A stretch of DNA of 14,879 bases. Origin: a virus (lineage: Duplodnaviria; Heunggongvirae; Uroviricota; Caudoviricetes). Shown one piece after another: positions 1-3,000 of the stretch. Numbering within the stretch: position 1 is the first letter of the stretch; the number at the start of each line of letters is the position of its first letter. The DNA lies in IMG/VR virus record IMGVR_UViG_2667527789_000019. One strand, 5' to 3'. Position numbers: made by a program.

Positions 1-3000
1 ATGCGTATAGGACAAAATCGTTTTTTGGGGGCTATACACATGTTGCTTTCAGACCTTGCTATCCGTCGCGCGAAGCCAAAAGAGAAAGCCTATACACTCA
101 ATGACGGCAACGGGCTTTCGTTACTCATTGAGCCGAACGGTTCGAAGGGCTGGCGATTGCGATACAGGTTTGCAGGCAAGCCCAAAATGTTGTCGCTGGG
201 TGTTTATCCTGAGGTGTCCCTTTCTGATGCTAGGACGGCAAGGGATGAAGCCAAAAGGCTTATCGCTGGTGGAGTTAATCCGAGTGAGGTCAGAAAGGCC
301 CAAAAGCGAGAACAGGCGAACAAATGCGGCAACACCTTTGAGGCGATCGCCCGTGAGTGGTATGAAAAACGCCTGGACCGATGGTCTCCCTCATATGCAG
401 AGGAAATGATAGAGACGTTTGAAAAAGACGTTTTTCCGTACATTGGAGGTAGGCCCATCGCAGAGATTAAGCCGATGGAATTGCTCGCGGTTCTATCCCG
501 TCTTAATGACCGTGGCGCAACTGAAAAATTGCGTAAGGTTCGCCAGCGATGTGGCGAAGTGTTCCGGTACGCAATAATTACCGGACGCGCTGAATATAAC
601 CCCGCTCCTGATCTGGCAAGCGCATTTGCACCACACAAAAAAGAGCATTACGCGTATCTGAAAGTTGATGAGCTACCGGAATTTTTCCGCGTTTTTAATA
701 CGTACACCGGAAGCCAGATCGTCAAGCTGGGTATGCGATTGTTGATTCTTACAGGACTTCGCCCAGGTGAATTACGGCAGGCAGAGTGGCAGGAGATTGA
801 TTTTGATAATCGTCTGTGGGAAGTGCCGAAAGAACGAATGAAAATGCGCCGTCCTCATTGCGTGCCACTTTCAGAACAGGCGATCGCTATTCTGGAACAG
901 TTAAAACACATGACGGGGCAGTATCCGTTTATTTTCCCTGGTCGAATACAGCACAGTAAGCCGATGAGTGAAATGGCTATGAACGTGCTTATTCGTCGTA
1001 TTGGCTATGCAGGGCGCGTTACTGGTCATGGGTTCCGGCATACCATGAGTACGATTTTGCATGAGCAGGGTTATAACTCCGCGTGGATAGAAACGCAGCT
1101 GGCGCACGTCGATAAAAACTCGATCCGTGGCACATACAATCACGCGCAATACCTGGACGGACGGCGGGAGATGCTCCAGTGGTACGCCGACTATATGGAC
1201 TCACTGGAACAGGGCGGTAACGTGGTGCACGGCAAGTTTGGTGTATGTGCATAAAAACGACTGGACAAGTATACAGATGTATACTAACGTACACGGAAAG
1301 CTACAGGTAATATCCTTACAGATGGTTTTTCACGCAGTTACCCCATCATGTATGGACGGCGCTCCTTGTAACAACGAAGATGGAGTCTTCTACGCAGCTG
1401 AAAAGCTGGATGCTCTTTAACAGCCTTTGGTGCTTTCCTGATGCAGGAAAGAATAGGGATACATGCACCTTTACAATGCATGTAATGATTCACCAATGAG
1501 GCTGCGGAGCGCTGACAAAGCGCAATTGCTCTCTTGCCTGCCCACCATGCCCTGAAAAAGGGCGCTCTTTAAAACTACTGGACGTCACGCCTAATCGTGT
1601 GACCCCGCCGAAAAGCGGGAATAGCTCTACCTTGCTGGAGCATACCAACCACCAACCAAACAATCTGAATTTATCTTATGCAATACCACAACATGTTTTC
1701 ATGTTGTGGTTTTTGTCGTGTTCGTAATTTGACGCAAATAAAACTCTTGCTAAGCCACAGGAGGGGATTTTCGCGTCAACATTAAGGAGATTGATAAATG
1801 GCTAATAACAATTCATTCATCCGTCTTTCTGAGGTTATGCGCCGTACTGGTTACGGTCGCGCATGGATTTATCGCCTGATCAGCCTGGGGCGTTTCCCTA
1901 AACCGGTAAAAATTGGTTCCCGCTCCGTGGCTTTTATTGAAAGTGAAGTCGACGAATGGATTAACCAGCGTATTGATGCTTCTCGCAACAACGCCGCGTA
2001 ATAATCTTTTGGGAGGGGGATATTCTCCCCCAGCACTAAACCTGATTCGATAGCAGGAGTTTTCAATGAAACGTCCGAATGTGCCCGTACAGGGGCAGGG
2101 CTTCGTTCAGCCTGAAATCAGCCAGAACGATATATTGATTCGCCACAAAGCAGAGTCGCGTATTGATTCCCGCCTGTTTGCTGAACGCATCGGCATAAAG
2201 CACAAAAGCCTTTATTCGCTTATTCAGAAGCACAAAACCGGATTGCGTGAACTGGGTATCCTTCCGTTTCAAACGGAGCGATTAAAAACCAATCAACACG
2301 GAGAGCGTGAACATAAGTTTGCTCTGCTGAATAGCGATCAGTTTGATTACATGCGCCATATCGTGAGCCATTTCGCCGCTGAGCGTATGAAACACGTTAA
2401 GCAATACTTAGAGGAGGTTTTATCAAATTATCGCGCTGGTGGCTCTGTACGGCGCGAATATTTGCATGATGCAGGAATGGCAGGCAAAACAAAGGCGACC
2501 ACGAAAGGGTCGCCAGTGGAGATAAAGGAAATCAAGCGCATCACCAACTATGCCATGAGTGTAGCTGGTGGACAAGGCTATCAGCCAGGCGGTCGGTTTT
2601 TAGTGGCTTTTAACCGCCGTGGGTATTTCTCGACAAAATCTTCAAGGGCAAATCGTTTTTGTGGGTGTTTTTTCACTCCGGGAAGAGGCGTTAACTCTTC
2701 GGGTTCTGATATCTCTTTAGCGCGTTTCAGTTCCAGTTGGCGCTCAAGTATGCGGTGCAAAAGCTGTCTTCGTTGTTCGGCAAAAATATCTGTAATGGAT
2801 TGGTACTTTTTGTTCATGCTGCTGCCCTGTAAAGCAATGCGCCGTAGTACCTCACACCACGGCGCTGATAGTGATTATTCTGATTCTTTGGCCTTGCGGC
2901 GCTGGCGGCGTTTGATCTCGCCTCGCATGGCTGTAACGATAAATTGCGCAGTGCTCTCGCCTGTTTCTTTTACTTGCTCCATAGCCTCAACAACTTCATG

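Follow-up and report, generated by a model that had tools for sequence, protein, structure and literature searches.

How do the PICIs (phage-inducible chromosomal islands) found in Gram-negative bacteria sense their helper phages? The question has been open since these satellites were described, and the DNA analyzed here suggests a specific and testable answer for one island family, namely that the inducer is the N protein of the helper, read by an array of RNA elements. The DNA is the IMG/VR virus record IMGVR_UViG_2667527789_000019 (Caudoviricetes), and its full length of 14,879 nt is referred to as the window. It starts with int (1-1254, plus strand), the P4-type tyrosine integrase gene of an island (Pfam Arm-DNA-bind_3, Phage_int_M, and Phage_integrase). 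A non-coding leader of 543 nt (1255-1797) lies between int and alpA (1798-2001, plus strand; Pfam Phage_AlpA, 1.7e-20), which encodes the satellite's master activator, a protein of 67 amino acids. Within 111 nt of this leader (1509-1619) are hairpins of four N-specificity types, in addition to a GAAA-loop hairpin at 1395-1408. We propose, at a probability of roughly 0.6, that the leader senses helper N proteins of several specificities and so allows RNA polymerase to read into alpA. An earlier note, made from the sequence alone, had suggested a nut-like leader of two specificities guarding alpA. That idea gained from two more boxB types, from the finding that phages carry one type and leaders two to four, from published reporter data on the satellite EcCIMP1, and from the layout of an island in Proteus; its views of int as the source of transcription and of a reversed element order had to be modified.

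boxB hairpins of the leader

Two hairpins of the leader, which like all of its elements described here are read on the plus strand, are exact copies of phage boxBs. GCCCTGAAAAAGGGC at 1549-1563 is the boxB of lambda nutR, as the earlier note had stated; in the lambda record NC_001416, nutR reads CGCTCTTA-CACATTCCA-GCCCTGAAAAAGGGC. This was the sole match in the window even when up to two mismatches were allowed (0.04 expected). GCGCTGACAAAGCGC at 1509-1523 was likewise the sole match with up to two mismatches (about 0.04 expected). It had been named as the P22 boxB, which is correct for P22 nutL (CGCTCTTTAACTTCGATGAT-GCGCTGACAAAGCGC in NC_002371) and not for P22 nutR, which differs. The same string is printed as RNA in a P22 N-peptide/boxB paper. 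An Stx2a-converting phage of E. coli has it as its nutL boxB too, and similar nutL regions were found in 48 Stx2a-phage records. Since Stx2a phages share the P22-type boxB, this specificity is relevant in E. coli.

The other two hairpins resemble phage boxBs closely. The hairpin at 1584-1603, GUCACGC-CUAAUC-GUGUGAC, is like the boxB of phi21 and Kapi1. phi21 nutR (TGCTCTTTAACAG-TTCTGGCCTT-TCACCTCTAACCGGGTGA) has the boxB UCACCU-CUAACC-GGGUGA, with which the leader hairpin shares the outer stem UCAC/GUGA and five of six loop bases. Its pattern, TCACNNCTAAYCNNGTGA, has no second match in the window (0.01 expected), and the stem changes seen between leader clades leave every pair intact. In the phi21 complex, the boxB loop takes up a UAAC fold with a C-C pair on its flanks; the window's loop retains the C-C flank but has UAAU inside, unlike phi21. 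The loop of this hairpin in one related leader, L005, is CUAACA. The last hairpin of the four, CCCGCCGAAAAGCGGG at 1604-1619 (CCCGC-CGAAAA-GCGGG), matches CCCGCCGAAATGCGGG at 15 of 16 positions. CCCGCCGAAATGCGGG is the annotated nutL and nutR boxB of HK620, from which the leader hairpin differs at a single loop base, and it occurs in CUS-3, IME10, HK630, mEpX2, HK140, and Stx1a/Stx2c phages as well. Related islands carry CCTGCCGAAATGCAGG in the same slot, with the exact HK620 loop and a compensated stem pair. Judged by loop and stem, the hairpins at 1584-1603 and 1604-1619 are phage boxB types too. These two and the hairpin at 1395-1408 all fold as described earlier.

The number of specificities sets the leader apart from the phages. 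nutR regions were gathered beside lambda-like cII genes in 80 IMG/VR contigs and fell into two types, the lambda type with the nutR boxB described above (61 loci) and TGCTCTTTAACAG-14 nt-CCCGCCGAAATGCGGG (19 loci). Each phage examined (lambda, P22, phi21, HK620, Kapi1, the Stx2a phage, and these 80 loci) had one boxB type. The island leaders had two to four, always on the alpA strand.

Upstream of the four lie further elements of the same kind. The hairpin CAGCU-GAAA-AGCUG (1395-1408; -5.6 kcal/mol) is invariant in long leaders, and in three other leaders (L023, L308, and L311) its slot holds UCGCU-GACAA-AGCGG instead, which has the P22 loop. A degenerate first module at 1343-1374 consists of the hairpin CCATCATGTATGG and the boxA-like CGCTCCTTGTAACAA; it aligns with GCCCTGGAGAAGGGC-AAT-CGCTCTTTTAACAA in relatives. 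About 95-125 nt into the leaders of L003-L006, this first module contains GCCCUGGAGAAGGGC, the lambda nutL boxB with one loop change from GAAGA to GGAGA. IMG/VR was scanned for GCTCTT followed after 3-30 nt by a hairpin. Scans with the 1395 hairpin, the exact 1604 hairpin, and the relatives' GCCCTGGAGAAGGGC returned solely the islands themselves or chance matches in coding sequence, and among the matches listed for the 5' half of the 1584 hairpin there were again only islands or chance coding matches. The 1395 hairpin and the GGAGA-loop hairpin are thus without a known phage counterpart. A BLAST search of the leader against 50,697 phage records gave no real match; boxBs are too short for BLAST.

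boxA elements and the order of the array

boxA or boxA-like elements accompany the hairpins. The one at 1411-1423, noticed earlier as boxA-like, is TGCTCTTTAACAG and is identical at 13 of 13 positions to the boxA of phi21 and Kapi1 nutR. The boxA-like TGCTCTCTT at 1527-1535 lies 3 nt past the P22-type boxB and 13 nt before the lambda boxB, and it is conserved in relatives. CGCTCTTTAAAAC abuts the lambda boxB and is 8 nt upstream of the 1584 hairpin; it spans 1563-1575, one position more than had been noted. The string YGCTCTTTAA occurs twice in the window, both times within the leader (0.06 expected).

A nut site has a boxA (CGCTCTTTA-like) 5' of the boxB at about 8-14 nt, the natural spacing in the reference phages. 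The earlier note saw boxB followed by boxA, the reverse of the lambda order. That is one possible reading of the interleaved array, which divides just as well into canonical boxA-spacer-boxB units: the boxA-like element at 1527-1535 is 13 nt from the lambda boxB and the boxA at 1563-1575 is 8 nt from the phi21-like boxB, and both distances fit. The HK620-like hairpin shares the boxA of the neighboring hairpin. The sequence around the boxAs also comes from phages. The AAT that separates a boxB from the following boxA is likewise phage sequence, found just ahead of boxA in the nutR of phi21, Kapi1, and CUS-3 (CAAATTGCTCTTTAACAG). Flanking bases are phage-derived as well (AATTGCTCTTTAACA, and GCTCTTTAACATTGATG as in HK620 nutL), and in longer leaders the 17-nt GCTCTTTAACATTGATG corresponds to the HK620 nutL boxA plus the start of its spacer. 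With such spacers and flanks, the array looks as if it was assembled from phage nut regions.

A possible antitermination switch ahead of alpA

Between the array and alpA is the strongest plus-strand terminator of the window (1685-1715; -15.9 kcal/mol). Its stem pairs 1685-1695 with 1700-1710 around the loop UUUU, and a U5 tail follows (1711-1715). A terminator with a T5 tract had been predicted at this place; the stem is 11 bp rather than 10, and the terminator ends 83 nt, not about 80 nt, upstream of the alpA ATG at 1798. The array is therefore upstream of a predicted terminator that would need read-through. Just before it, a C-rich, G-poor unstructured tract (1641-1684; GC skew about -0.5) is possibly a Rho-utilization site.

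Transcription need not depend on RNA polymerase leaving int, as the earlier note assumed. A conserved promoter-like element, TGGACA-17 nt-TAACGT (1262-1290), was found by eye just past the int stop codon. It was below the scan threshold, its segment is nearly invariant across the leader clades (TGGACA-17-TAAAGT in relatives), and we infer that it is the leader promoter. The EcCIMP1 reporter fragment discussed below begins about 22 nt inside int and includes the equivalent segment. A perfect palindrome, AGTATAC-AGAT-GTATACT, lies in the spacer of this putative promoter (1268-1285); it is imperfect in the other clade, and a regulator of the island or of the host may use it as an operator.

A Pfam search of the island's 20 open reading frames (ORFs) found no N36 or N_peptide match, and no cognate N gene thus accompanies the array. 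The nut sites must therefore serve a protein supplied in trans, and four boxB specificities would need four different N proteins.

The following sequence of events would account for this arrangement. When no phage is present, transcripts from the promoter after int, and any read-through from int, would stop at the C-rich tract and the terminator, and alpA would be off. When a lambdoid prophage is induced or a lambdoid phage infects, its early N protein would bind the cognate boxB on the nascent leader RNA. N and NusA, with NusB and NusE on the adjacent boxA, would make the polymerase resistant to termination, and the modified polymerase would pass the C-rich tract and the terminator into alpA. 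AlpA would then switch on both itself and the island's rightward operon, after which the satellite would excise and replicate. N complexes are processive, so the same polymerases may go on into that operon. With several boxB types, one island would answer several helper groups, and recombination between the repeated modules would change the boxB repertoire. A promoter for AlpA autoactivation, which has been published for related satellites (PMC6092414; PMC11773190), may be the weak promoter-like TTGACG-16 nt-TAAGCC at 1729-1756, within a block that is invariant in all leaders.

Induction of EcCIMP1 by its helper

Published work on EcCIMP1, a satellite that sits at tRNA-Thr beside proA in E. 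coli MP1, bears on this proposal (Pick et al. 2025, PMC11773190). EcCIMP1 has the short form of the leader, and its AlpA has the protein accession shared by the short-form islands; its alpA is closely related to that of the window, and the two share the leader family. An EcCIMP1 alpA-lux fusion covering -449 to +50 was strongly induced when the helper prophage Kapi1 was induced with mitomycin C; there was no induction in a non-lysogen, and induction persisted in a ΔalpA strain (PMC11773190). The upstream part of this fragment is the whole 427-nt EcCIMP1 leader plus about 22 nt of int. Since Kapi1 induces the reporter without alpA, the leader fragment holds a promoter and a helper-responsive element. 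The paper does not name the inducer (PMC11773190). Kapi1 and phi21 have identical nutR sites, the CUAACC loop recurs in the Kapi1 nutL boxB, and the gene after Kapi1 nutL gives a weak N_peptide match.

An equivalent leader in Proteus

AlpA relatives in other species were taken from species-representative genomes, 80 in all, and among them was an island of Proteus myxofaciens with the order int-leader-alpA-hypothetical-antA, as in the E. coli islands. Its leader starts with a good promoter (TTGACT-16-TACTAT) in the same position as the putative one of the window. A first nut copy, TGTTCTTTAACA-5 nt-GCGCTGAAAAAGTGC (boxA-5 nt-GCGCUGAAAAAGUGC), has its counterpart in the nutR of a Providencia phage, directly after cro (CGCTCTTTAACA-5 nt-GCGCTGAAAAAGCGC). 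The second copy (boxA, spacer hairpin, and GACGCTGATAAAGCGTC) is 64 nt long and matches a Morganella phage nutL at 87.5% identity; that nutL is flanked by an operator-bearing promoter and, downstream, by an N_peptide-family gene whose product has an N terminus rich in arginine. Further boxA-like elements follow, and then a terminator about 50 nt before alpA. As read from these sequences, the same architecture is present in two genera, each time built from the nut sites of local phages and with two or more specificities per leader, making the Proteus island an independent replicate.

Distribution and variation of the leader family

A megablast search found the leader in 43 complete E. coli genomes and a more sensitive search in 292 of 5,426, or about 5%, with Shiga toxin-producing (STEC) and enterotoxigenic (ETEC) strains among them. 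A leader 100% identical to that of the window is in an island of E. coli 2014C-3338 (NZ_CP027452). In the long form, for example that of ETEC H10407, there is an additional first module, GCCCTGGAGAAGGGC-AAT-CGCTCTTTTAACAA, and two modules of the P22 type lie 114 nt apart; the window's form has lost the stretch between these two repeats. In the commonest short form (about 249 genomes), the P22-type boxB is joined to the boxA that follows the lambda boxB, and the lambda boxB is therefore missing. Hybrid or decayed modules were seen in some variants (L002, L021, and L022). The region from 1563 to the terminator is constant among the forms, and the order of promoter-like element, nut array, strongest plus-strand terminator, and alpA is conserved in relatives. 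Comparison of these forms indicates that leader modules are shuffled by recombination, being gained, lost, and hybridized.

Conservation of the hairpins in homologous islands was a check called for in the earlier note: all 203 stem cells are paired across seven distinct leaders. The HK620-type hairpin and the terminator each show one compensatory pair change, and three other changes preserve a wobble. With only two clades involved, this is modest evidence. A set of 57 positions (the 1395 hairpin, the 1411 boxA, and the P22 and lambda boxBs), which was picked post hoc, is unchanged between clades that differ at about 13% elsewhere. IS3-family elements were found in one leader, where the promoter-proximal half is cut off (L007, about 1172-2334), and in place of the start of alpA in another island (L023, 2875-4088), which suggests repeated inactivation of the switch.

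Evidence against the proposal and other explanations

Several observations weigh against N sensing by this leader. The window's phi21-like loop is CUAAUC and that of EcCIMP1 is CUAAUA, compared to CUAACC in phi21 and Kapi1; a phi21-type N may or may not recognize the two island loops, and the match between the EcCIMP1 leader and Kapi1 is suggestive and approximate rather than exact. The P22-type boxB lacks the canonical boxA-boxB order, as its nearest upstream boxA is 85 nt away and another boxA is 3 nt downstream. Among the leader variants, the commonest has lost the lambda boxB, L002 and L022 have decayed boxBs, and the common clade has a weak terminator U-tract (UCUUUGG). No consensus sigma-70 promoter in the leader exceeded the scan threshold. 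Between clades, nut motifs are 92% conserved and the rest of the leader 87%, a difference that is not significant (p 0.12-0.30). The Proteus island is the only one of the 80 AlpA relatives in other species with a boxA and boxB array upstream. Finally, the int-alpA leader of EcCICFT073 from E. coli CFT073 (L011, 4161-4525) is unrelated and has no nut elements, and its alpA is switched on by lambda and phi80 by an inducer described as under study (Fillol-Salom et al. 2018, PMC6092414). N sensing is therefore not a general PICI mechanism, and the proposal is limited to this leader family. The EcCICFT073 leader has runs of direct repeats containing ACAAC and folds no better than shuffled controls; the repeats may hold binding sites for a different phage-encoded inducer.

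EcCICFT073, induced presumably by such a factor, is also a reason to think that the helper signal acts elsewhere: a phage protein other than N could activate a promoter in the leader or the alpA-proximal promoter, the nut elements being modulatory or irrelevant. The EcCIMP1 reporter, which leaves the inducer unidentified, and the loop difference from Kapi1 would both agree with this. It leaves unexplained why exact boxBs of several phage groups stand with boxAs between a promoter and a terminator in two genera, and we hold it to be decidedly unlikely. An RNA that carries several hairpins of the N-binding type and ends at a strong terminator could also serve as a decoy, with a terminated small RNA of about 420 nt titrating the helper's N. 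The result would be interference or superinfection immunity, possibly alongside sensing. Satellites commonly interfere with their helpers, and EcCIMP1 adds to superinfection immunity against Kapi1 by a mechanism that was not named, PADLOC and DefenseFinder having found no known defense system in it (PMC11773190). An effective sponge should also lower Kapi1 titers and infection of non-lysogens, yet EcCIMP1 leaves Kapi1 titers after induction unlowered and has no effect on Kapi1 infection of non-lysogens (PMC11773190). The leader promoter looks weak, and the array always stands in cis to alpA, upstream of it and pointing the same way, and includes boxAs that a pure decoy would not need. We consider a decoy alone to be unlikely.

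Two more explanations do without N altogether. In one, the boxAs would load NusB/NusE and their partners, as in rrn operons, and protect the untranslated leader from Rho, while the hairpins would be merely structural. The several strong boxA elements and the C-rich, rut-like tract downstream are as this would require. Complexes of the rrn type work chiefly at Rho-dependent terminators, not at strong intrinsic ones. In loop and stem, the boxBs agree base for base with those that specific phage N proteins recognize, and expression of the EcCIMP1 reporter depends on the helper, all of which makes antitermination by host factors alone very improbable. It is equally hard to credit that the nut elements are non-functional scars, fragments picked up from prophages by recombination and now drifting. 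The decayed or hybrid modules and the lack of significant motif conservation are what drift would leave. It would not be expected to leave four specificities crowded into 225 nt in a single orientation, a leader kept in about 292 genomes, stem changes that preserve pairing, or 57 nut positions unchanged between the clades, and the same design has been built independently in Proteus from the nut sites of other phages. Sensing of helper N by the leader is thus the reading we prefer.

Gene content and other features

The island has the layout of an AlpA-type Gram-negative phage satellite (PICI-like). Such islands are about 10-20 kb long, with a rightward-transcribed int, alpA, and a primase/replication module, and they lack genes for virion structure and lysis. 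Downstream of alpA are a Rha-like gene, DUF4222, a DUF927 primase, SSB, ProQ/FinO, PerC, and a Q-family antiterminator, and ORF and Pfam annotation of the window's island found no capsid, terminase, or lysis genes. The Q-family late antiterminator (10406-10804, plus strand; Pfam Phage_antitermQ, 2.5e-50) is present though the island has no virion genes, and a satellite-borne Q could turn on the late operon of a helper. A second, larger tyrosine integrase of 532 amino acids is encoded just past the end of the island (12630-14228, plus strand) and is probably where another integrated element begins. The twin island in NZ_CP027452 adjoins a tRNA-Gly gene, and yqeG, not a second integrase, comes next. 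In EcCIMP1-type islands, isrK and a C4 antisense RNA (Rfam, 69 and 81 bits) were found on the minus strand upstream of ash/icd-like genes (L021, 4781-5008; L004, 5078-5305; L313, 100-327). By analogy, they are a P1/P7-style antisense control module inside a satellite; the window has no such Rfam matches.

Compared with shuffled controls, the complete leader has a far better fold (z = -5.8), and all of the hairpins described here are predicted. Besides those of the nut array, there are two conserved spacer hairpins (1433-1451 and 1461-1483; -9.7 and -6.9 kcal/mol), which are kept in long leaders and missing from short ones, and a conserved hairpin GCUCUA-CCUUGC-UGGAGC (1624-1641). No Rfam family reached its gathering score in the window, and the leader gave only chance-level matches to AgvB (15.9 bits, E 2.3) and SAR11_0636. 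A CA-rich tract (1641-1695; CCAACCACCAACCAAACAAUC ... ACCACAACAUG) runs up to and into the terminator, and the terminated leader, if stable, could have a 3' end like that of a small RNA. An AgvB (anti-GcvB small RNA) identity for this tract was rejected, given the chance-level score; AgvB, which is located at prophage moron sites, is not related. A minus-strand ORF that the annotation of some genomes places over the leader was also rejected as coding; it is broken in the window, and not all leader indels are in-frame.

Comparison with known systems

Nut sites, N antitermination, N trans-activation, and AlpA-controlled satellites are all known already. Their connection may be new, as the searchable literature, in which subscription journals are mostly not covered, contained no report joining PICIs, alpA, or satellites with boxB, nut, or N. 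We give even odds to the broader idea that a family of enterobacterial satellites detects helpers via RNA, an evolvable cassette array of nut mimics capturing the N of any lambdoid phage that turns active, so that the activator gene in effect joins the helper's "delayed-early" operons. As boxB modules are gained, lost, and recombined, helper range would be set and reshuffled, and the same RNA might blunt the helper by titrating N. If this is true, it would explain how one satellite uses unrelated helpers and would make helper range predictable from sequence. For synthetic biology, an orthogonal N/boxB array would have the added interest of being a natural antitermination switch with multiple inputs.

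The closest likeness is to the nutL and nutR sites of lambdoid phages (lambda, P22/933W, phi21, and HK620/H-19B), with which the leader shares the same or nearly the same boxBs, the same boxAs, natural spacing for the lambda-type and phi21-like units, and a position in RNA upstream of terminators. It differs in belonging to a satellite without N, in having several mutually exclusive specificities on one transcript in contrast to one per phage examined, in its extra boxAs right after boxBs, and in gating a satellite activator rather than delayed-early genes. Phages of the mEp021 group use three nut sites, and thus more than two for one antiterminator, but these have a single specificity within one phage genome. 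rrn leaders (boxB-boxA-boxC) also have a hairpin followed closely by a near-consensus boxA. Here there is no rRNA, no boxC was identified, Rfam gave no match, and the hairpins are of phage N-specific boxB types; the rrn-like order arises largely from interleaving. An analogy with the AlpA antiterminator of P. aeruginosa was dropped, as that protein is larger and Q-like compared to the 67-residue AlpA of the window.

Among satellites, EcCICFT073 and EcCIMP1 have the same int-alpA-primase layout, with alpA as a master activator raised only upon helper induction; EcCIMP1 shares this leader family, while EcCICFT073 does not. The N protein of a superinfecting phage can trans-activate a repressed heteroimmune prophage, acting in trans on the nut sites of another element so that terminators are read through. 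In that classical case, trans-activation is a by-product of the specificity shared by two phages, whereas the leader would be a dedicated, multi-specific input of a satellite. The Stl repressors of Staphylococcus aureus pathogenicity islands (SaPIs) recognize several unrelated helper-phage proteins, and repression is relieved by protein-protein contact. As the SaPIs do, the satellite would here sense an essential early function of the phage and widen its helper range by recognizing several variants. Stl is a protein repressor, whereas the sensor proposed here would be an RNA with antitermination as its output, a mode of detection unlike the protein-protein derepression of the SaPIs.

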